Below, piece by piece: positions 1,729-11,187 of a stretch of DNA of 64,000 nt. Positions within the stretch are counted from its first letter, which is position 1. Each line of letters starts with the position of its first letter. The position numbers and the translations under genes are program-made. The stretch is from Minisyncoccia bacterium (GTDB lineage Bacteria > Patescibacteriota > Minisyncoccia > Phycocordibacterales > UBA9973): assembly GCA_049287305.1 (NCBI GenBank), contig JBAQFO010000012.1:89768-153767 (forward strand), read 5' to 3'. The notes beneath the pieces are model-generated. The model saw nothing but the letters and a program-made list of their open reading frames with translations. It was not told the origin of the DNA and made no database searches.

Positions 1729-1734
1729 ACTTTT

Positions 1735-1954
1735 ACAGGCGTTCGAGGGGAGATCACCCCTTCGCCCCGCGAAGCGGGGCAGGCTTCGGGAAGAATTAAG
1801 TAGAACCCGACGGGCAAGCCCGTTATAGCCGTAATGAGAAACCCCGCTCGAAGCGGGTAAAAACAAAGGTGGTACCACGAGCAAAGAAACTCGTCCTTGT
1901 TCAGCAATTCAGTCAGTCTTTTGAATTGTTGTCCGAGGACGAGTTTTTTATTTT
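1735..1954 (+). promoter_or_regulatory. T-box riboswitch-like leader with intrinsic terminator, upstream of ileS
   Basis: AAAGGTGGTACCACGAG at 1865-1881 matches the T-box consensus AGGGTGGNACCGCG at 12 of 14 positions, including the UGGU bulge that pairs with tRNA ACCA. A terminator immediately downstream has arms AAACTCGTCC (1887-1896) and GGACGAGTTT (1937-1946), an inner helix CAATTC/GAATTG and a TTTTTTATTTT tract. GATCA in an upstream hairpin would give an AUC specifier followed by A. Confidence 0.5.
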
Positions 1955-2035: not shown

Positions 2036-2296
2036 ATGGACAAAAAAGAAAAAACCATAAAGTTTCTTGGAACGCTTGGCACAACCATAGCTATACTTAT
2101 GTTCGTTTCGCTTCTTGAAATCGCCCGAGCAAACATAAGAGGCGAGAGTCATATATTCATACAGCCGATTATGGTTACAATAAATTGTTTTACTTGGTCA
2201 TTGTATGCTTATCTTAAAAAAGAAAAGTTCGTATTTTGGGCAAATTTCCCAGGAGTCCTACTTGGAATTATTACAATAATAACAGCTTTTATATAA
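2036..2296 (+). CDS. small three-helix membrane protein with SemiSWEET-like topology
   Basis: 86 aa with three hydrophobic segments and Trp and Asn at SemiSWEET-like positions (FTWSLYAY, FWANFPG), but no PQ motif. The stop lies 2 nt before the ileS ATG. Confidence 0.35.
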   Translation: MDKKEKTIKFLGTLGTTIAILMFVSLLEIARANIRGESHIFIQPIMVTINCFTWSLYAYLKKEKFVFWANFPGVLLGIITIITAFI

Positions 2297-2298
2297 AT

Positions 2299-5200
2299 AT
2301 GAGTGAAGAAACAAAAAAAATCATAGAAAAATCTGACGCAGCCTTCCGCGAAGAGAAGGTTTTGGAATTTTGGAAAGATAATAAAATTTTCAACAAGACG
2401 CTGGAAGCAAGTGCCGGCAAGAAAGAATTTATTTTTTACGACGGTCCGCCTACTGCTAACGGCATGCCGGGGATTCACCACCTGATTCCGCAATCTTTTA
2501 AGGATGCTATTCCGCGATATAAAACAATGCGCGAGTTCCATGTCCGCAGAAAGGGGGGCTGGGATACTCACGGCCTTCCCGTTGAACTCTTGGTGGAAAA
2601 AGAACTGGGATTGAAATCAAAAAAAGAAATTGAGAGTTACGGTATTGCCGCCTTCAACCAAAAATGCAAAGAAAGTGTCTGGAAGCACGTGGATGTCTGG
2701 TATAAATACCGCGACCGAGTCGGATACTGGGTGGACAAGGATAATCCATACGTTACTTACCACAACGAATTCATTGAGTCGCTGTGGAGTGTGGTGAAAA
2801 AAATAAACGAACGCGGACTACTTTATAAAGATTATAAAGTAGTGCCATGGTGTCCGAGGTGCGGGACGGCGCTGTCTTCACATGAGCTTGCCCAAGGATA
2901 TGAGGACGTAAAAGATTTATCGGTGACGGCAAAATTCAAAGTTGTCGGACAAAACAATACTTATATCCTGGCATGGACGACGACTCCATGGACGCTTCCA
3001 GGGAATGTGGCACTCGCTGTTGGAGAAAATATTGATTATGTAAAGGTGAAAGTAGGAGCCGAGCTTTATATTTTAGCCAAAGCCCGACTTTCTATAATAA
3101 CCGAATCTTACGAGATAGTGGAAGAGATAAAAGGCGGAGGGCTGATTGGCTTGGAATATGAACCGCTGTTCCCATATTTCAAAAATACGATTTCCGAAAA
3201 TGAAAAACCAAAACTGGAAAAAGCCTTCCGGGTGCATAAAGCAAACTTTGTAACCACGGAAGACGGCACGGGGGTAGTGCATACCGCCGTAATGTATGGA
3301 CAGGACGACTTTGTGCTCGGGAACGAAGTCGGCTTGCCGAAACATCATATGGTAGGGCTGGATGGAAAATTCCTTCCCGGGACTGGCATATTTGAAAGGC
3401 GCTTTGTAAAAGACGAGGAAGTTGCCGTAGATATAATCAAAGATTTGGCTGGACGAGGGCTTCTTTTTAAAAAAGAAAAATACGAACACTCGTATCCGCA
3501 TTGCTGGCGATGCAAAACTCCGCTCATATACTACGCGAGAGATTCTTGGTATATCAAAATGTCTGACCCGAAAATAAAAGCCGAACTCATCAGCCAAAAC
3601 AAAGAAATAAATTGGGAGCCGGCGCATACCCGCGACGGACGTTTCGGCGAATGGCTTCGGGAGATAAAAGATTGGGCAATATCACGTGAGCGATATTGGG
3701 GAACACCGCTTCCGGTGTGGTCTTGCGAAACTTGCAAGAAAACCGAAGTGCTCGGGAGCATAGAAGATATAAAATCTAAAGCAAAAAAATCCGGAAATAA
3801 ATATTTGGTAATGCGGCACGGCGGAACTAATGCCAACAAGAAAGGACTTGTAAGCTATAAAAATGAGGCAAGCGACCACCTGACGGAAGAAGGGAAAAGG
3901 CAAGTCACGGCAAGCGCGGAGAAACTAAGTAGCCAAAAAATAGATTTAATTGTGGCGTCTCCCTTTGTTCGCACTAAAGAAACAGCATTAATAGTTAAAG
4001 ACAAATTTGGCCTCGGCGAAGACCAGGTTGTTTTTGACTCGCGCTTGGCGGAATTTGACCCTGGGGATTTTGACGGCAAAGAATGGAAAGATTATCACAG
4101 ATATATTGCTAGCTCAGGGTCTGGATGGTTCAATCAAACAATCCCGGGCGGAGAATCCCTCAAGGATGTGGGGGAGAGGACGGCGTCCCTCTTATATGAG
4201 ATTGAAAATAAGTTCAGTGGAAAAAATATTCTCATTGTTACCCATGGCGGACCGGCATGGCTTTTGTTCGTTAATTCTGGGTTGTTTATACCAGGAGGCG
4301 AGGCTTATAGGATTCCAAACGGAGAATCTTTCGTAAAAGAATTTCAACAGCTAAGGAATGCCGAGGTTAGAGAGTTACCGTTCGCGCCGTTGCCCCATAA
4401 TGAAAAATACGAATTGGATTTGCACAAACCTTATATTGATGAAGTAAAAATGGTTTGTTCCTGCGGAGGAGAACTTATCCGCACCAAAGAAGTCATGGAC
4501 GTGTGGTTTGACTCTGGTGCAATGCCTTTTGCTCAGGACCACTATCCGTTTGAAAATAAAAAATGGGTGGAAGGGCCCGGGTTCCCTGCGGATTTTATCG
4601 CGGAGGCCATAGACCAGACGCGCGGATGGTTCTATACGCTACATGCCGTCGGAATTTTGATGGGGCGAGGCAAGGCATATAAAAACGTGATTTGCTTAGG
4701 TCATTTACTAGACGCCAAAGGAAAGAAAATGTCCAAGTCTCTCGGCAACGTAGTGAATCCGTGGGAAGTAATGGATAAATATGGAGTGGACACATTACGC
4801 CTGTGGATGTATTCCATAAACCAGCCAGGGGAGTCAAAGAATTTTGACGAGAAAACGGTGGCGCTTCTCTCTCAGCAAGTTTTCGGACTGCTTTACAATG
4901 TGCTGGCCTTTTACGAACTTTACCGAGACAAAAGCTACGAAGATAACTCCAGACCAAGCTCTAAAAATATTTTGGACAAATGGATTCTCACCCGTCTTTT
5001 TGAATTAAGGAATGATGTAACAGCCAACATGGATAGTTATAAATTGTTGGAACCTGTGCGAGGAATGAGAGATTTCATCGGAGACCTTTCTACTTGGTAT
5101 TTAAGGCGGTCCCGAGAAAGAATAAAGGAAGGCGACTCGGAAGCGAAGGCCACTTTATATTTTGTGTTGAAGAGTCTAGCCAAGCTGATGGCTCCGTTCG

Positions 5201-5808
5201 CCCCTTTCGCTGCGGAAGACATCTGGTTAAAACTTAGAACAGACAAAGATAAAGAAAGTGTGCATTTGGAAAATTGGCCGACCGAATCCAATATTTTAGG
5301 CATTCTAATGCGACTACCCGGACAAATGCGCACCCTGGTCTACATGGATGAAGTAAGGAAAATAGTAACCCTGGGACTTGAGGCTAGGCAGAAAACCGGG
5401 ATAAAAGTCCGCCAGCCACTTGCCTCCATCAAGGTAAAGTTCGGGAAGCTTGGAGCGGAATACTTGGAATTAATAAAAGAAGAACTGAACGTGAAAGAAA
5501 TAATCTTTGATGATTCAATTTCAGAGGAAGTATTGCTGGATATAAGAATAGACGAAGAACTGAAAGCGGAAGGAAGCTATCGCGAACTTGTGCGGGCTCT
5601 TCAGGATATGAGGAAAAAATCAGGACTTACGCCGAGCGATGTCATAGCGCTTACCATTGCAACAAACGAAGACGGGAAAGCGTTGATTGAGAAATTCCAG
5701 GCGGACATGAAGAAAACAGTTCTTGTCTCAAATATAGAATTTGCTGAAAATGACGGGGAGAAAATAGTAGTTGATGAGTTGGTTTTCAGGGTTAAGATTG
5801 AGAAATAA
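2299..5808 (+). CDS. ileS: isoleucyl-tRNA synthetase (type-2, Thermus/eukaryote-like) carrying an inserted histidine-phosphatase domain
   Basis: The HIGH-class motif PTANGMPGIHH and the KMSKS motif are both present. The CP1 editing region (TTTPWTLPGN), WGTPLP and DVWFDSG are also there. The start is ATG 2299 (MSEETKK); the track ORF from 2236 is an upstream extension. Confidence 0.93.
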   Translation: MSEETKKIIEKSDAAFREEKVLEFWKDNKIFNKTLEASAGKKEFIFYDGPPTANGMPGIHHLIPQSFKDAIPRYKTMREFHVRRKGGWDTHGLPVELLVEKELGLKSKKEIESYGIAAFNQKCKESVWKHVDVWYKYRDRVGYWVDKDNPYVTYHNEFIESLWSVVKKINERGLLYKDYKVVPWCPRCGTALSSHELAQGYEDVKDLSVTAKFKVVGQNNTYILAWTTTPWTLPGNVALAVGENIDYVKVKVGAELYILAKARLSIITESYEIVEEIKGGGLIGLEYEPLFPYFKNTISENEKPKLEKAFRVHKANFVTTEDGTGVVHTAVMYGQDDFVLGNEVGLPKHHMVGLDGKFLPGTGIFERRFVKDEEVAVDIIKDLAGRGLLFKKEKYEHSYPHCWRCKTPLIYYARDSWYIKMSDPKIKAELISQNKEINWEPAHTRDGRFGEWLREIKDWAISRERYWGTPLPVWSCETCKKTEVLGSIEDIKSKAKKSGNKYLVMRHGGTNANKKGLVSYKNEASDHLTEEGKRQVTASAEKLSSQKIDLIVASPFVRTKETALIVKDKFGLGEDQVVFDSRLAEFDPGDFDGKEWKDYHRYIASSGSGWFNQTIPGGESLKDVGERTASLLYEIENKFSGKNILIVTHGGPAWLLFVNSGLFIPGGEAYRIPNGESFVKEFQQLRNAEVRELPFAPLPHNEKYELDLHKPYIDEVKMVCSCGGELIRTKEVMDVWFDSGAMPFAQDHYPFENKKWVEGPGFPADFIAEAIDQTRGWFYTLHAVGILMGRGKAYKNVICLGHLLDAKGKKMSKSLGNVVNPWEVMDKYGVDTLRLWMYSINQPGESKNFDEKTVALLSQQVFGLLYNVLAFYELYRDKSYEDNSRPSSKNILDKWILTRLFELRNDVTANMDSYKLLEPVRGMRDFIGDLSTWYLRRSRERIKEGDSEAKATLYFVLKSLAKLMAPFAPFAAEDIWLKLRTDKDKESVHLENWPTESNILGILMRLPGQMRTLVYMDEVRKIVTLGLEARQKTGIKVRQPLASIKVKFGKLGAEYLELIKEELNVKEIIFDDSISEEVLLDIRIDEELKAEGSYRELVRALQDMRKKSGLTPSDVIALTIATNEDGKALIEKFQADMKKTVLVSNIEFAENDGEKIVVDELVFRVKIEK
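3796..4410 (+). other. in-frame histidine phosphatase (PGAM/SixA-like) domain inserted in IleRS between the WGTPLPVW...KAKKSG and LDLHKPYIDEV segments
   Basis: The catalytic RHG is at 3814-3822 (LVMRHGGTNAN). Further PGAM-type segments are LTEEGKRQ, IVASPFVRTKETA, RLAEFDPGDFDG, PGGESLKDVGER and a second His motif ILIVTHGG (His near 4243). A Thermus-type IleRS has only about 40 aa between these flanking motifs. Confidence 0.7.
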
Positions 5809-5838
5809 AATTCTCGTTCTTGTCTTTAAAAAGAATAG

Positions 5839-5847
5839 TGGTATAAC
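5839..5847 (+). promoter_or_regulatory. extended -10 TGgTATAAC for the small GC-rich gene
   Basis: Read from the sequence. It is followed by GGAGG at 5854-5858 and ATG at 5866. Confidence 0.4.
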
Positions 5848-5865
5848 AAGACTGGAGGCCTAAGC

Positions 5866-6063
5866 ATGGTCAATTGCGAGAGCTGTCAGATGCGGTCGCT
5901 CAAGGAATGTGAACGGTGTGCAACCAATTTCCTCATGGAAAACAAGTGCACACCGGAAGGGGCTCCTGTTCAGGTGGAGCCCTTCGACGCACGCAACCGC
6001 CTTCGGTTCGACCCGAACATGTTCGTGTCGAACCGGAAGCGTCGCCAGCTCAATCCGTCCTAA
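5866..6063 (+). CDS. small GC-rich Cys-motif protein (CESC-x9-CERC), hypothetical
   Basis: The SD GGAGG sits 7 nt before the ATG and a terminator lies downstream. Codons are strongly GC-rich compared with ileS. The region also holds a 12-bp inverted repeat, CTTCGGTTCGAC...GTCGAACCGGAAG. Confidence 0.35.
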   Translation: MVNCESCQMRSLKECERCATNFLMENKCTPEGAPVQVEPFDARNRLRFDPNMFVSNRKRRQLNPS

Positions 6064-6086
6064 GTCCAGCATCCTCTGCTGGCAGA

Positions 6087-6132
6087 ATCCGTCGGGAGCG
6101 CACCTTCGTTGCGCCCGACGGATTTTAATTTT
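6087..6132 (+). terminator. intrinsic terminator: ATCCGTCGGG ... CCCGACGGAT with inner GCGCA/TGCGC, then TTTAATTTT
   Basis: A perfect 10-bp outer stem plus a 5-bp inner stem, followed by a T tract. Confidence 0.7.
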
Positions 6133-6148
6133 ATGGTAAAATATAGTT

Positions 6149-6790
6149 ATGAAGATCAAGAAACTTGGACACTCCTGCCTAGTAATTAATATTAACGGGG
6201 CTAAGATAATGTTGGACCCCGGCAAGTATTCTCTGTCTCAGGTTGAAGAAAGGGATATTGACATAATTCTAATCACGCACGAGCATAGTGATCATTGCCA
6301 CTTAGAATCTATTAAAAAGATATTGGAGAATAACCCACAAGCAGAAATAATTACCAACTTTTCGGTAGGGAAAATTCTGGAGAAAGAAAGTATTAACTAT
6401 GCAATGATTGAAGATGGGCAGAAGGTTGTAAGTCATGGTGTTACTATTATTGGTGTGGGGAAATTACACATAGAAGCACATCGTAGAATTCCTGTGGTTC
6501 CAAATACTGGTTTTATAATAAATGACAAGTTTTTTTACCCCGGGGATGCGTTGCACATACCAAAACATAAGGTAGAAGTTGTTGCCTTTCCTGTTGGCGG
6601 AGGATTTCTTAAAATCAGCGAAGTTGTTGAGTGGCTCGAAACACTTAAACCCAAAGTGGCTATTCCTGTGCATGATGGCCTACTAAACGAAGACGGTAAA
6701 AAAACTTTCTATAAAAATTACCAAAATATCCTTACAGGCACCGGAATTGAATTTAAGGCATTAGAAGTAAATAAAGAAGAAGAATTTTGA
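6149..6790 (+). CDS. MBL-fold metallo-hydrolase
   Basis: ITHEHSDH (the HxHxDH motif) and further His and Asp ligands downstream. Confidence 0.8.
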   Translation: MKIKKLGHSCLVININGAKIMLDPGKYSLSQVEERDIDIILITHEHSDHCHLESIKKILENNPQAEIITNFSVGKILEKESINYAMIEDGQKVVSHGVTIIGVGKLHIEAHRRIPVVPNTGFIINDKFFYPGDALHIPKHKVEVVAFPVGGGFLKISEVVEWLETLKPKVAIPVHDGLLNEDGKKTFYKNYQNILTGTGIEFKALEVNKEEEF

Positions 6791-6791
6791 T

Positions 6792-7238
6792 ATGCCCAAG
6801 GAAGTGATTAATTTTATTAATAGCCAATTTCTATCAGTCCTTTCCGTGGAGATGATGGATGGCTCTCCGCATGCGGCAACGGTGCACTTCGCGCTGTCGG
6901 AAGAGCCATTCATGTTTTTGTTTGAGACATATCGCCCATACAGGAAATGCGAGGCGCTTTTCGGACGCGAAATATCGCGGGCTTCGGTTGTCATAGGGTT
7001 TGACGAAAGCAACAGGAAAACTTTGCAAATGGACGGGGAAGTTAAGCTTTTAACCACGGACACGGAGATGATGCTTTTTAATAAAGTATATTTTAAAAAA
7101 TTCCCAAATAAAAAGGAAAAATCCAAGGACCCGAAATTTGTTTTCTTTGCGTTTGTTCCGAAATGGTGGCGGTATACCGACTGGGACCATTCGTCCGGGA
7201 AAATAATTCTTAGTTCTGAAGACGGACAGAAACAATAA
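6792..7238 (+). CDS. pyridoxamine 5'-phosphate oxidase-like FMN-binding split-barrel protein
   Basis: Size and residue pattern fit small PNPOx-like family proteins. The similarity is weak. Confidence 0.4.
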   Translation: MPKEVINFINSQFLSVLSVEMMDGSPHAATVHFALSEEPFMFLFETYRPYRKCEALFGREISRASVVIGFDESNRKTLQMDGEVKLLTTDTEMMLFNKVYFKKFPNKKEKSKDPKFVFFAFVPKWWRYTDWDHSSGKIILSSEDGQKQ

Positions 7239-7239
7239 A

Positions 7240-7821
7240 ATGCATCACATTTACCACACCGAGGGAATAATACTGGGAAGCAGGGCTCACGGAGAATCCG
7301 GGAAGTATTATTATATTTTCACCCGAGACTTGGGAATGGTATACGCTTCGGCGCAAGGAGTCCGCAAGATTTCTTCCAGACTTCGGTTTATTCTCCAGGA
7401 TTTTGCTTATTTAAAAATTGACCTGGTGCAAGGCAAGGATTTGTGGCGATTAACAAGTGCCCAGAAGACAAACATGCTGGAAAAAGTATCCAAAAACCCC
7501 GAAACATTCAGAGTATTTTTTAACATAGCTCGTCTTTTGAAAAGACTGCTGGCCGGAGTGGAGCCCAATATTCCTTTATTTTCAGACCTAATAAGCGGGC
7601 TTTCGGTTTTGGAAAAAACTACCAAACTCGAAGATTTACGGAATATTGAAGCTGTCATAGTTTTACGGGTGCTTCACAACTTAGGCTACATCGGGGACGA
7701 TAAATTACTGGGGAATCTCGTGCAGTCTCCGTTTGAGGAAGAATTAATTTATAAAGTTTCAAAAAACAGGCCCGAAGTGCTGGAACAGATAAATAAAGCG
7801 CTAAAAGAAACTCATCTGTAA
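7240..7821 (+). CDS. recO: DNA repair protein RecO (short form)
   Basis: The N-terminal OB-fold pattern EGIILGSRAHGESGKYYYIFTRDLGMVYASAQGVRK matches RecO. Confidence 0.65.
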   Translation: MHHIYHTEGIILGSRAHGESGKYYYIFTRDLGMVYASAQGVRKISSRLRFILQDFAYLKIDLVQGKDLWRLTSAQKTNMLEKVSKNPETFRVFFNIARLLKRLLAGVEPNIPLFSDLISGLSVLEKTTKLEDLRNIEAVIVLRVLHNLGYIGDDKLLGNLVQSPFEEELIYKVSKNRPEVLEQINKALKETHL

Positions 7822-7848
7822 AGCGTAAAGTATGGTATAATTCCCTTT

Positions 7849-9780
7849 ATGCCGCTAGATGACAAAAATAAGCTAAATAGGATTGAAGAATTAAAAGGTA
7901 AGCTCTTCCGAAAAAATTATCACACGAAATTGGAACACAGAGATGGTTTCACCGCCCAAGGGAGTCGTGGAGTCGTGGATTCTTGGAACACTAAAGAGAA
8001 AACCGCATCGGACTTTAAGAAAGAGTTTTTCATGAAAACATCAATGTTTAAAAAACTTTTTATTTTTTCTGTCGCGTTTTTTGCTTTAACCCTCCTGTAC
8101 GCGGGATATGTTTTTTTTGCCGGGAGCAACACTGTTTCCAGCGACAACATTGAAATATCGGTTTTAGGCAACAATTTTACCGCCGGGGGAGAGGAGCTGG
8201 ATTTGATAGTGGGAATTACGAACAGAAATAGCGCATCTCTTGATTTGGTGGACTTGGTTGTGGAATATCCGAAGGGCGGAGCGGTGGATTTATCCACTGA
8301 TACCGACCGCATGCGTGTGTCACTTGGGTCTATTCCAGCCGGAGCGGTGCGGAATGAAACTTTGAAGCTTGTGCTGTATGGACAGCAGGGCAGTGTTCGC
8401 CCCATAAGAATTACGCTGGAATACAGAGTAGTTGGCTCAAACTCCATATTCGTTAAAGAAAAACTTTTTGAAGTAAATATTAACTCAACGCCTATTAATC
8501 TTTCCGTGGAAGCGCCGTCGTCCGTAAGCCCGAATCAAAACATTAATTTAGTAGTCAAAACATCATTAAACGCCACCAAGCCGGCTGAAAAAATGCTTAT
8601 AAAACTTGATTACCCCTTGGGGTTTCAGTTTATAAGCGCAACCCCGGCGCCATCCTTTAGTAATAATATTTGGGACCTGGGAGACCTAGCTCCCGGAGCG
8701 GAGCATAGTATTTCCATATCTGGGAAAATGGTGGATGTATTTGACGGCGAAGAAAAAACTTTCAATATTTCCAGTGGTTCGCAGTCGTCATCAAGCAAAT
8801 CCGTAATCGGAGTTGTTTTTAATTCCATCAGGCACACGGTGATGGTAAGCAGGCCTTTTATTGAAGCCAACCTGTTCGTGAACGGTGTCTCCGAGAAAGA
8901 ATACGCGGTAGACGCCCGGACAGCTCTTAACGTGGAAGTGCGTTACGTTAACCACCTGGACACAAGGGTTGATAATTTGAAAATAAACGCGAAAATTTCG
9001 GGGAATGCTTATAACCGCACTACGGTAAGGCCCCAGCTCGGATTTTATAATTCTTCCACCAACACGATAACGTGGGACAGAAATTCTAACAACAAGCTTC
9101 GGGAAGTGGACCCGGGGGAATCCGATTCGGTGGTGTTTTCTGTTTCTCCACTGCCACTTTTTTCAGCAGAAGGGGGAGTTCTTACCGACCCAGTTATAAA
9201 TATTGAAGTCAGCGTAGAGGGACAGCAAGCCATAGAGGGATTTGAAAATAAGGAATTACAAAATTCTTCTTCCGCGCTGGTGAGAATAATTTCCGACGTT
9301 GGGTTTACGCCGAAGGCCTACTACTACTCCGGACCGATTAAAAATTCGGGACCAATCCCTCCTAAGGCCGAACAAGTAACCACCTACACTATTTTATGGA
9401 CACTGACCAATACATCCAACAGCATCTCGGGCGCGCAGGTAAACGCCACTCTTCCTCCATGGATGAATTTTGAAGGCTCAATTTCACCTGCCGGACAAGA
9501 CGTGACATATGATGCCGCCGCTCGGGCAATAAAATGGAATGCGGGCAGAATTCCTAAAGGCGCCGGAATTTCAGCCGCTTCTCCGACTGTTGCATTTAAG
9601 GTTTCTTTCAAGCCTTCGGTTTCGCAAGTCGGTTCTACTCCGAACATTATAAATTCCTCTATTTTGACTGGGCGTGACGATTTTGCTAAGGTGGACGTGA
9701 GGGTAAACAAGGGGCCACTCACCACGAAAATGGAAGGCGACGCGGCGTTCCCCCAAAATGGAGGCATCGTAGCTCCGTAA
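7849..9780 (+). CDS. membrane-anchored hypothetical protein with a large beta-rich ectodomain
   Basis: A single TM helix (LFIFSVAFFALTLLYAGYVFF) follows a roughly 60-aa cytoplasmic N-terminus. I see no catalytic motifs. Confidence 0.5.
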   Translation: MPLDDKNKLNRIEELKGKLFRKNYHTKLEHRDGFTAQGSRGVVDSWNTKEKTASDFKKEFFMKTSMFKKLFIFSVAFFALTLLYAGYVFFAGSNTVSSDNIEISVLGNNFTAGGEELDLIVGITNRNSASLDLVDLVVEYPKGGAVDLSTDTDRMRVSLGSIPAGAVRNETLKLVLYGQQGSVRPIRITLEYRVVGSNSIFVKEKLFEVNINSTPINLSVEAPSSVSPNQNINLVVKTSLNATKPAEKMLIKLDYPLGFQFISATPAPSFSNNIWDLGDLAPGAEHSISISGKMVDVFDGEEKTFNISSGSQSSSSKSVIGVVFNSIRHTVMVSRPFIEANLFVNGVSEKEYAVDARTALNVEVRYVNHLDTRVDNLKINAKISGNAYNRTTVRPQLGFYNSSTNTITWDRNSNNKLREVDPGESDSVVFSVSPLPLFSAEGGVLTDPVINIEVSVEGQQAIEGFENKELQNSSSALVRIISDVGFTPKAYYYSGPIKNSGPIPPKAEQVTTYTILWTLTNTSNSISGAQVNATLPPWMNFEGSISPAGQDVTYDAAARAIKWNAGRIPKGAGISAASPTVAFKVSFKPSVSQVGSTPNIINSSILTGRDDFAKVDVRVNKGPLTTKMEGDAAFPQNGGIVAP

Positions 9781-9786
9781 CACACA

Positions 9787-11187
9787 ATGAAAAACCAAGA
9801 AAAAAATGAAAATGATTTAATGGAAAAAATAGTTTCACTCTGCAAAAGACGCGGATTTATTTTTCAAGGTTCGGAAATATACGGCGGGATGGCTGGAATG
9901 TATGATTTTGGTCCTTATGGTGTTGAGCTTTTAAATAATATTAAATCAGCTTGGTGGAAAGAACATGTCCAGAAACGAGACAATTATTTTGGTCTTGATT
10001 CAGCTATGTTTAAAGATCCGCGAGTTTGGGATGCGTCAGGGCATACCAGCGGTTTTTCGGATCCGTTAGCAGAATGTAAAAAATGTAATACTCGTATCCG
10101 AGTCGATAAAGAATTGGAGAAAGTTGGAGTCACTGCAGATGAAAAAATGTCTGAAATTGAACTCAATACTTTATTTACTGAACACAAAACAAAAATTAAA
10201 TGTCCTAAGTGTGGGGCAAGCGATTTTACGCCAGTGCGCGCGTTTAATTTATTAGTCAAGACCAATATGGGTGATTTTACGGGCAAGAATGAAACCCCAG
10301 TATATTTACCAGGGGAAGCATGTCAGGGGATATATCTCAATTTTAAAAATGTAGTTGATACCACTCGCGCCAAAATACCTTTTGGTATTGCTCAGATAGG
10401 TAAGGCATTTCGTAACGAAATATCTCCACGTAATTTTCTTTTCCGAACTCGTGAACTCGAACAGGCTGATACTCAATATTTTGTGCGTCCACATGAAAAC
10501 AAAGAAGCATACGAAAAAATAAAACAAGATCGTTTCAGTTGGTATATAAAAATGGGAATAAAACCAGAAAATCTTCGTTTCAAACAGCACGAGAATCTAG
10601 TATTTTATGCTGCGGATGCGTGGGACATTGAATACAATTTTCCAGCAAATGGTTTTGATGAGCTTGAAGGTATCCACGACAGAACAGATTACGATCTGAC
10701 TCAGCATATGAAATTTTCTGGGACAGATTTGAATTATACTGATCCGAATACTAACGAAAAATATATTCCTTGGATTTTAGAAACTTCCGTAGGTCTTGGT
10801 CGCATGTTTCTGGCTTTTATTTCTGAAGCTTATACTGAAGAAGATTTTGATGGTGAGCTTCGCACTGTTCTTAAGCTTGCATACCGACTTGCTCCAATCA
10901 AAGCTGCTGTTTTTCCATTGTTAAAAAACAAACCTGAACTTGTGGCAAAGGCGCGTGAAGTCTATGAAATGCTCCGAGAAGATGTGCGGACTGAATGGGA
11001 TGACAATGGCAACGTCGGCAAGCGATATCGTCGTCAGGATGAAATTGGAACGCCATTTTGTATAACTATAGATTTCGAAACGATTGAACAGGATGTGGGA
11101 GTGACTGTGCGAGATCGTGATACAGGGAAACAAGAGAGAGTAAGAATTGAGGACTTGAAAGATTATATAAAAGAAAGAATAAGCTAA
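9787..11187 (+). CDS. glyQS: glycyl-tRNA synthetase (alpha2 type)
   Basis: GSEIYGGMAGMYDFGPYG plus class II motifs. Confidence 0.9.
   Translation: MKNQEKNENDLMEKIVSLCKRRGFIFQGSEIYGGMAGMYDFGPYGVELLNNIKSAWWKEHVQKRDNYFGLDSAMFKDPRVWDASGHTSGFSDPLAECKKCNTRIRVDKELEKVGVTADEKMSEIELNTLFTEHKTKIKCPKCGASDFTPVRAFNLLVKTNMGDFTGKNETPVYLPGEACQGIYLNFKNVVDTTRAKIPFGIAQIGKAFRNEISPRNFLFRTRELEQADTQYFVRPHENKEAYEKIKQDRFSWYIKMGIKPENLRFKQHENLVFYAADAWDIEYNFPANGFDELEGIHDRTDYDLTQHMKFSGTDLNYTDPNTNEKYIPWILETSVGLGRMFLAFISEAYTEEDFDGELRTVLKLAYRLAPIKAAVFPLLKNKPELVAKAREVYEMLREDVRTEWDDNGNVGKRYRRQDEIGTPFCITIDFETIEQDVGVTVRDRDTGKQERVRIEDLKDYIKERIS

Follow-up and report, generated by a model that had tools for sequence, protein, structure and literature searches.

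A histidine phosphatase domain in the zinc-knuckle loop of isoleucyl-tRNA synthetases from Minisyncoccia and related uncultured bacteria

Few enzymes have been studied as thoroughly as the aminoacyl-tRNA synthetases (aaRS), and the additional domains found in some of these proteins have repeatedly revealed new biology, such as editing, signaling and resistance. The locus analyzed here raises the question of why an essential aaRS would harbor a second, apparently active enzyme within its core. The respective gene, ileS (positions 2299..5808, stop codon included), is located in a 64,000-nucleotide stretch of the genome of a Minisyncoccia bacterium (contig JBAQFO010000012.1 of assembly GCA_049287305.1, positions 89,768 to 153,767; hereinafter, the window). 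As judged from the open reading frame (ORF) and from Pfam and NCBIfam comparisons, it encodes a type-2 isoleucyl-tRNA synthetase (IleRS) of 1169 residues that accommodates a second enzyme domain of about 205 additional residues, a histidine phosphatase (HP); all features described below are on the forward strand. The combination recurs in hundreds of lineages, with apparently repeated capture of the domain at varied sites and in varied copy numbers, a pattern that, at the genomic level, strongly hints at a functional partnership absent from current annotation.

The inserted domain and its host enzyme

An initial annotation, made from the sequence without database searches, had described an uninterrupted, in-frame phosphoglycerate mutase (PGAM)-like domain at 3796-4410 (residues 500-704) between two conserved IleRS blocks and had proposed a Pfam search as a check. 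This search yielded a significant match to His_Phos_1 (PF00300; 107.2 bits against a gathering threshold of 21.7, E=1.1e-30) at residues 503-657 (3805..4269), which splits the tRNA-synt_1 domain and is followed by Anticodon_1 and DUF5915; all the phosphatase motifs quoted in the annotation are found in the insert. Alignment with 12 related IleRS that lack the domain places the complete insertion, a branch-1 HP with its linkers, at residues ~497-704 (3787..4410), with the junctions KKSG/NKYLV on the N-terminal side and NEKYEL/DLHKP on the C-terminal side; residues 658-704 comprise the C-terminal linker and the last strand. The conserved blocks are indeed close to each other in the 12 insert-less proteins, where the equivalent loop consists of only ~30 residues and follows the pattern ...W.CE.C....V.GS..EL......DLHRPYIDE..L.C.CG... 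In the window protein, the insertion separates a CxxC motif (C476 and C479, 3724..3735) from a CxC motif (C720 and C722, 4456..4464); as indicated by the alignments, these are the two halves of a zinc knuckle that immediately flank the insert. We take this loop to be the second zinc site of the CP3 region in the structures of Thermus thermophilus IleRS and ValRS, the name being our assumption. The insert is complete and is predicted, with high confidence, to adopt the alpha/beta fold typical of phosphoglycerate mutases; its guanine-plus-cytosine (GC) content (0.43-0.47) is in line with that of the remainder of ileS.

Artifactual origins of this architecture can be dismissed. The ORF starts formally with a TTG at 2236, the biologically sensible start being the ATG at 2299 (MSEETKK...), and from that codon to the stop at 5808 it contains no frameshift or stop codon. 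The possibility that the phosphatase is a separate gene, joined or cut off by a frameshift, is further refuted by 71 relatives with unbroken ORFs of at least 1000 residues. An assembly chimera is rejected because a 100% identical protein (MFZ2150071.1, annotated in NCBI as [quoted passage not shown]) occurs on two contigs, and because the same architecture is present in hundreds of independent assemblies, which also rules out a chance match. As originally proposed, the insert is not an intein: no Hint or intein family was found among the Pfam results, and the junctions, with no Cys, Ser or Thr at the +1 position and no His-Asn, are wrong for splicing.

The catalytic residues of the phosphatase were traced in an alignment of 72 full-length fused proteins, namely, the window protein and 71 proteins from species-representative genomes that are 47-66% identical to it over the insert and its flanks, and in 34 free-standing phosphatases. 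The RHG motif (3814..3822), with R506, the nucleophile H507 and G508, is conserved in 72, 72 and 70 of the 72 fused sequences, respectively, and is invariant in the free-standing ones. The phosphate-binding arginine of the S-P-x-x-R-T motif, R558 (3970..3972), is present in 72 of 72 fused proteins and is invariant in alignments A1, A3 and A4; E585 of the RL.E motif (4051..4053), the probable proton donor, is a glutamate in 71 fused proteins and an aspartate in one, and is D or E in all 34 free-standing forms; and the second active-site histidine, H649 of ILIVTHG (4243..4245), is found in 72/72 and 34/34 sequences. Among the fused proteins, N513 is also invariant (72/72), E619 is conserved in 69 of the 72, and the GGES/R627 motif is close to invariant. 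By analogy with PhoE and the cofactor-dependent phosphoglycerate mutase (dPGM), we presume that E585 (RLAEFDPG) is the proton donor and that the glutamate of GGES belongs to a conserved structural motif. Outside the active site, the domain diverges rapidly: over 110 full-length database relatives, the mean identity to the window protein is 46% for the phosphatase core against 76-82% for the synthetase core. A frozen active site in a fast-diverging domain is the pattern of a working enzyme and rules out a decayed pseudo-domain. The sequence evidence thus bears out the view that the catalytic positions are intact and that the insert is a functional-looking module rather than junk, apparently a catalytically competent phosphatase.

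The label "PGAM-like" stands only in part: the insert belongs to branch 1 of the histidine phosphatases but is better described as a PhoE/PspA/CobC-like phosphatase, given that the dPGM and CobC models of NCBIfam score far below their cut-offs. Specifically, the scores are 64 bits against 225 for dPGM_arch, 42 against 316 for PRK01295, 22 against 81.7 for pgm_1 and, for the alpha-ribazole phosphatase CobC (TIGR03162), 88 against 162.9; PspA, SixA and GpmB identities are likewise rejected by the respective cut-offs. The only NCBIfam models that the insert alone matches are generic phosphatase models, every one under its cut-off. By both sequence and fold, the nearest characterized relatives are PspA, GpgP, PhoE, a riboflavin-pathway HFP and CobC, all of which are small-molecule phosphatases; however, the insert is only 23-26% identical to the PhoE, PspA, GpgP and CobC phosphatases of known structure (PDB 1h2e, 4ij5, 6s2q and 6e4b). 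Compared with the PhoE, PspA and CobC types, it forms a subfamily of its own, marked by the N-x-Y-F-x-x-R-H-G start and by linkage to ileS.

The host enzyme shows the sequence hallmarks of a complete IleRS. It exceeds the cut-off of the ileS equivalog model TIGR00392 (863 bits against 621.4), matching in two stretches around the insert; the KMSKS loop (residues 810-814, 4726..4740) is intact and nearly invariant in alignment A1; the CP1 editing motif TTTPWT is intact at residue 227; and the anticodon-binding domain (residues 893-1041) and the type-2 C-terminal DUF5915 domain (residues 1078-1169) were identified with Pfam in the region 4975..5805. An AlphaFold2 (AF2) model of IleRS with the insert reached a predicted local distance difference test (pLDDT) score of 80.6, and the best Foldseek match of the whole model was the IleRS2 of Priestia megaterium (8c8v, E=1.4e-76), with yeast IleRS (8wnd) also among the best matches. 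With 8c8v, the window protein shares the Rossmann core, the CP1 editing domain, KMSKS, the helical anticodon-binding domain and the type-2 C-terminal domain. The class I signature is the non-canonical GIHH (residues 58-61, 2470..2481) in place of HxGH; GIHH also appears in the consensus derived from the alignment of fused relatives, as well as in the L102/L154 pair of loci discussed below. The GXHH variant has been described for some IleRS2, in which this swap is functional and confers mupirocin hyper-resistance (PMC10485003). No further ileS gene was found within the window. The equivalog match, the intact KMSKS and CP1 motifs and the conserved isoleucine T-box leader upstream of the gene make this protein look like a housekeeping IleRS.

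The zinc knuckle around the insert evolves in an all-or-none fashion: 35 of the 72 fused IleRS retain the complete set of four cysteines and the other 37 have none of them, whereas the set is kept in all 12 insert-less relatives. Thus, about half of the fused enzymes have dropped the flanking zinc site.

Accretion of domains on aaRS is already known, and the closest parallel is the NCBIfam family NF040702 (ileS_w_GNAT), an IleRS that has likewise accreted a small-molecule-modifying enzyme domain; however, that domain is a GNAT rather than a histidine phosphatase, and the window protein, at 325 bits against a cut-off of 1999, is not a member of the family. Another parallel is provided by the RNase H/acid phosphatase proteins (PRK07238, Rv2228c type), in which a CobC/PhoE-like phosphatase is also fused to a nucleic-acid enzyme; PRK07238 is the second-best NCBIfam match of the insert, with 85 bits, far under the cut-off of 326. 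In that case, in contrast to the internal insertion in the window aaRS, the fusion with RNase H is end-to-end. Among the solved or described IleRS2, we found none with a domain in the zinc-knuckle loop. The initial annotation was aware of no family of aaRS-PGAM fusions, and in the portions of the literature available to our search, recent evolutionary and structural studies of IleRS included, we likewise found no mention of an HP insertion in an aaRS or of an operonic pairing of IleRS with a phosphatase. An internal insertion of a histidine phosphatase in IleRS therefore appears to be undescribed.

Distribution, free-standing forms and repeated capture

The initial annotation had also proposed a search for the same insertion in other IleRS, and the insertion proved to be widespread. 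PF00300 was detected in all 120 of the best full-length database matches (64-75% identical, 1138-1355 residues). A scan of one genome per species yielded 388 related stretches; the best 80 of the 388 all contain the insert, 79 of them over the full query. These 80 are labeled Paceibacteria, Paceibacterota, Nomurabacteria, Taylorbacteria, Parcubacteria and Minisyncoccia, and approximately one third are generic Third Party Annotation (TPA) assemblies titled "uncultured Candidatus Saccharibacteria". The fused architecture is a lineage-wide trait, far from unique to the window.

Some IleRS contain more than one phosphatase domain, almost all copies of which retain RHG or RHA. Two tandem domains are present in five proteins (P0437, P0412, P0450, P0467 and P0487), two domains at separate sites in P0413 and P0458, and four tandem domains in P0365. 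When mapped on the window protein, the insertions fall into three sites: the zinc-knuckle loop (residue ~497), the loop after the WFDSG motif (residues ~750-762; copy 1 of P0458 and copy 2 of P0412) and the junction before the anticodon-binding domain (residue ~890; P0413 and copy 2 of P0458). The P0458 type was identified on six contigs, the longest being 1.06 Mb, with PurA, DAHP synthase, SufBD and an SLH protein as neighbors, and the P0505 type is located near a long RelA/SpoT. Gene content such as PurA, DAHP synthase, RelA/SpoT and SLH appears to be atypical for Patescibacteria. Because some of these loci (in the L166-L169 set) have neighbors that look unlike those of Patescibacteria, the association of IleRS with the phosphatase appears to reach beyond this group.

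The closest proteins other than IleRS are phosphatases of ~190 residues that are 39-43% identical to the insert and span it entirely, beginning with N-x-Y-F-x-x-RHG and ending with the last strand, G-E-L-R-K-L; in the source databases, they are annotated only as "histidine phosphatase family protein" or "PhoE". In the first four examples, the downstream gene is ileS or, in L084, a 58-residue fragment too short to identify, and the upstream gene, where visible, is argS. A metagenome scan seeded with these free forms produced 80 loci, in 35 of which the phosphatase is free-standing and in 45 of which it is within IleRS. Among the 33 free-standing loci that could be judged, 30 contain ileS downstream on the same strand, and in 25 of these 30, the end of the phosphatase gene abuts or overlaps the beginning of ileS; argS is directly upstream in at least 18 free-standing loci, so that the usual order is argS-HP-ileS. 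In many fused loci, argS also precedes ileS, and no phosphatase gene separates the two. With a profile built from the free forms, 2079 proteins were recovered at E<=1e-10 in a 90%-clustered collection, and a profile of the free forms together with the window insert recovered 305 clusters, represented at 50% identity, at E<=1e-30.

Comparison of the free and inserted states suggests that the phosphatase was captured, or released, more than once. The locus L102 (argS-HP-ileS) and the locus L154 (argS-ileS, with the insert) encode ArgRS that are 75% identical, IleRS that are 59-64% identical and HP that are 59% identical; the inserted HP of L154 shows this level of identity to the free forms of L102 and L120, compared with a median of 39% to other fused HPs, and the HP of L093 is also closest to free forms (~60%). 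In neighbor-joining trees, L154, L102 and L120 cluster to the exclusion of all others in 70 of 100 bootstraps, and a split that unites L154 or L093 with the window HP to the exclusion of the free forms occurs in 0-1 of 100; a single origin of the fusion thus finds no support in the bootstraps. In the IleRS tree, as in the HP tree, the free and inserted states are interspersed. Taken at face value, these rough trees point to two or more independent switches between a free-standing and an inserted phosphatase.

Several other variants were observed in this survey. In four relatives (P0157, P0163, P0180 and P0199; 1317-1355 residues), the end of DUF5915 in the fused IleRS is replaced with an additional domain, an HD phosphohydrolase (PF01966); searches with this extra domain against NCBIfam and PDB sequences returned nothing informative. 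Short database proteins that combine PF00133 with PF00300 and are encoded on long contigs could have been taken for naturally split IleRS; however, one of these (P0056, at L081) derives from a gene riddled with frameshifts, and the sequence of another (P0027) starts inside the phosphatase domain. The L081 gene is broken into many short ORFs, probably through a sequencing or assembly error.

Possible functions of the phosphatase

Our preferred reading, to which we give somewhat less than an even chance, is a bifunctional enzyme: a working type-2 IleRS that carries, on the tip of the zinc-knuckle loop, a phosphatase of the PhoE/PspA type acting on a soluble phosphoester. The insert would sit at the tip of this surface loop of the IleRS catalytic core and, via a phospho-His507 intermediate, would hydrolyze a soluble phosphomonoester or a terminal phosphate that is produced or encountered at IleRS. 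Candidate substrates include compounds of the nucleotide type such as AMP, another by-product of the reaction, or a phosphorylated inhibitor directed against IleRS; local removal of the substrate could keep isoleucylation running. Action on tRNA 3'- or 2',3'-cyclic-phosphate ends, or on alarmones or other nucleotides, had been put forward as a speculative role in the initial annotation. From the completeness of the insert, the linkage of its stand-alone orthologue to ileS and the repeated accretion regardless of geometry, we infer that selection favors a phosphatase physically close to IleRS; the exact geometry of the insert does not seem to matter. A soluble substrate is favored because placement seems unimportant, copies multiply, the surface of the domain evolves fast and the characterized relatives act on small molecules.

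Several considerations weigh against this reading. Three free-standing members of the family (L107, L112 and L119) do not adjoin ileS, and synteny is generally well conserved in these genomes (160 loci), so that part of the adjacency of HP and ileS could be inherited rather than selected. The trees were built by neighbor-joining from saturated distances and the key group is supported at 70%, which makes the number of independent insertions uncertain. A second, insert-free ileS might be encoded elsewhere in the genome, beyond the 64-kb window. Finally, the proposal does not explain why IleRS should be singled out among the aaRS for a phosphatase close at hand.

The HD domain of the CCA-adding enzyme of Escherichia coli has both phosphatase and 2',3'-cyclic phosphodiesterase activities. 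This precedent, and the functional analogy with HD-type small alarmone hydrolases, which are also phosphohydrolases and restore a chargeable tRNA 3' end, lead to an alternative in which the insert repairs tRNA ends, removing a 3'- or 2'-phosphate, or a pyrophosphate or 2',3'-cyclic-phosphate remnant, from the CCA end and thereby rescuing ends damaged by nucleases or pyrophosphorylated by toxSAS enzymes. Both IleRS and the ArgRS of the same operon use the tRNA 3' end, and in the four close relatives with the extra HD domain, this domain is located at the C-terminus of the same IleRS, the end that binds tRNA. Pyrophosphorylation of the tRNA CCA, which blocks aminoacylation, and its reversal by HD-type small alarmone hydrolases have been documented (10.1101/2021.04.30.441581). 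The HD fold, which is metal-dependent, is unrelated to that of the insert. We consider tRNA end repair unlikely: the nearest relatives are small-molecule enzymes; three insertion sites and up to four tandem copies speak against a precisely aimed active site, and the fast evolution of the HP surface is also unfavorable; and such damage would not be limited to tRNA-Ile but would strike every tRNA. To our knowledge, no member of the histidine phosphatase superfamily acts on RNA ends, and none was found in our literature search. The partnership could also be illusory, if a metabolic phosphatase from a syntenic block was captured into permissive loops of IleRS and has been kept as harmless or for the sake of co-expression. 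The neighborhood of tmk, dut, argS, ileS, recO and glyS is broadly conserved (160 loci, argS being present in 98 of these), which makes adjacency alone weak evidence; furthermore, HP evolves like an independent, weakly constrained enzyme, and some members of the family are encoded elsewhere. Such a neutral scenario also has a low probability in our estimate, inasmuch as an internal in-frame insertion cannot result from simple read-through of a stop codon, capture apparently occurred repeatedly, at three sites, in multiple copies and also in genomes unlike those of the Candidate Phyla Radiation (CPR), and the free HP stop and the ileS start so often adjoin or overlap.

Two further alternatives concern the protein itself. 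A protein phosphatase that dephosphorylates IleRS or a partner, for example, reversing the action of a HipA-like kinase toxin or a Ser/Thr kinase, seems very improbable. Slightly less probable still is a silent structural or tRNA-binding module that took over the stabilizing role of the zinc knuckle: the joint loss of the flanking cysteines in just over half of the fused IleRS, compared with their retention in every insert-less one, suggests that the insert relaxes the need for zinc, but half of the fused enzymes still retain the site, the free-standing orthologues carry the same catalytic residues, and the invariance of these residues in a domain that falls to 46% identity is the signature of a working active site.

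Beyond the bifunctional enzyme of the window, a broader proposition, doubtful but conceivable, is that a large share of uncultured bacteria, belonging to Patescibacteria and to one or more further lineages, rely on a phosphatase as a dedicated partner of IleRS in an unrecognized step of translation maintenance. The partner would be either a separate, co-translated protein or one to four built-in domains. It might clear a phosphate or pyrophosphate block at the tRNA 3' end, and so act as an intrinsic antidote to nuclease damage or to toxins of the toxSAS type, or it might destroy a phosphorylated natural inhibitor at its target, making IleRS a "self-defending" drug target; the latter idea would fit the hyper-resistance-type GXHH motif and the existence of IleRS variants with GNAT or HD domains. 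Service of tRNA ends or destruction of an inhibitor would amount to a new maintenance or defense step in translation. Even if the insert turns out to be no more than a metabolic enzyme on a tether, it provides a clear natural case of a domain that has repeatedly entered the same host protein, and it would offer a ready-made system in which to study the tolerance of a protein to such insertions, about half of the fused enzymes having lost the flanking zinc site.

The upstream leader and neighboring genes

A T-box leader with a very short Stem I is located at 1733..1901 (Rfam RF00230, 49.3 bits compared with a gathering threshold of 93, E=1e-9). It includes a hairpin, GGGG-AGAUCA-CCCC (1747-1760), that exposes AUC, an isoleucine codon, and the canonical T-box motif AAAGGUGGUACCACGAG (1865-1881), which is aligned in the RF00230 match. 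In a terminator-like hairpin (1890..1954), CTCGTCC (1890-1896) pairs with GGACGAG (1937-1943) and is followed by TTTTTTATTTT; the 5' arm extends into the antiterminator side of the T-box, an arrangement that might be regulatory. The leader is conserved upstream of the fused ileS in at least 20 relatives, as detected with blastn, in line with control of a housekeeping gene by uncharged tRNA-Ile.

Between the T-box and ileS, the window contains a gene (2036..2296) for an 86-residue membrane protein of the SemiSWEET/MtN3_slv family (PF03083, E=3.3e-10). In the relatives, the T-box directly precedes ileS, without the SemiSWEET gene. Given that this gene sits under an apparent isoleucine T-box, the substrate of the SemiSWEET protein might be isoleucine or a similar solute instead of a sugar.

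The wider neighborhood is a conserved block (window 2299-11187; loci L001-L165) with the order (tmk, dut)-argS-(HP)-ileS, followed by genes for a metallo-beta-lactamase (MBL)-fold hydrolase and a PNPOx-like protein and by recO. The block continues with a gene for a DUF11 protein of ~640 residues and another for a class II aaRS with tRNA-synt_2b and HGTP_anticodon domains; the latter is putatively glyS-like by its N-terminal motif.

Upstream of the leader, the region 600-1700 of the window has a GC content of 0.47-0.55, compared with ~0.33-0.45 in the flanks, and a strong positive GC skew; it contains no Pfam-supported ORF and no Rfam match, and no conservation was detected in relatives. In many of the relatives, argS is located upstream of ileS, in the place that this GC-rich stretch occupies in the window.

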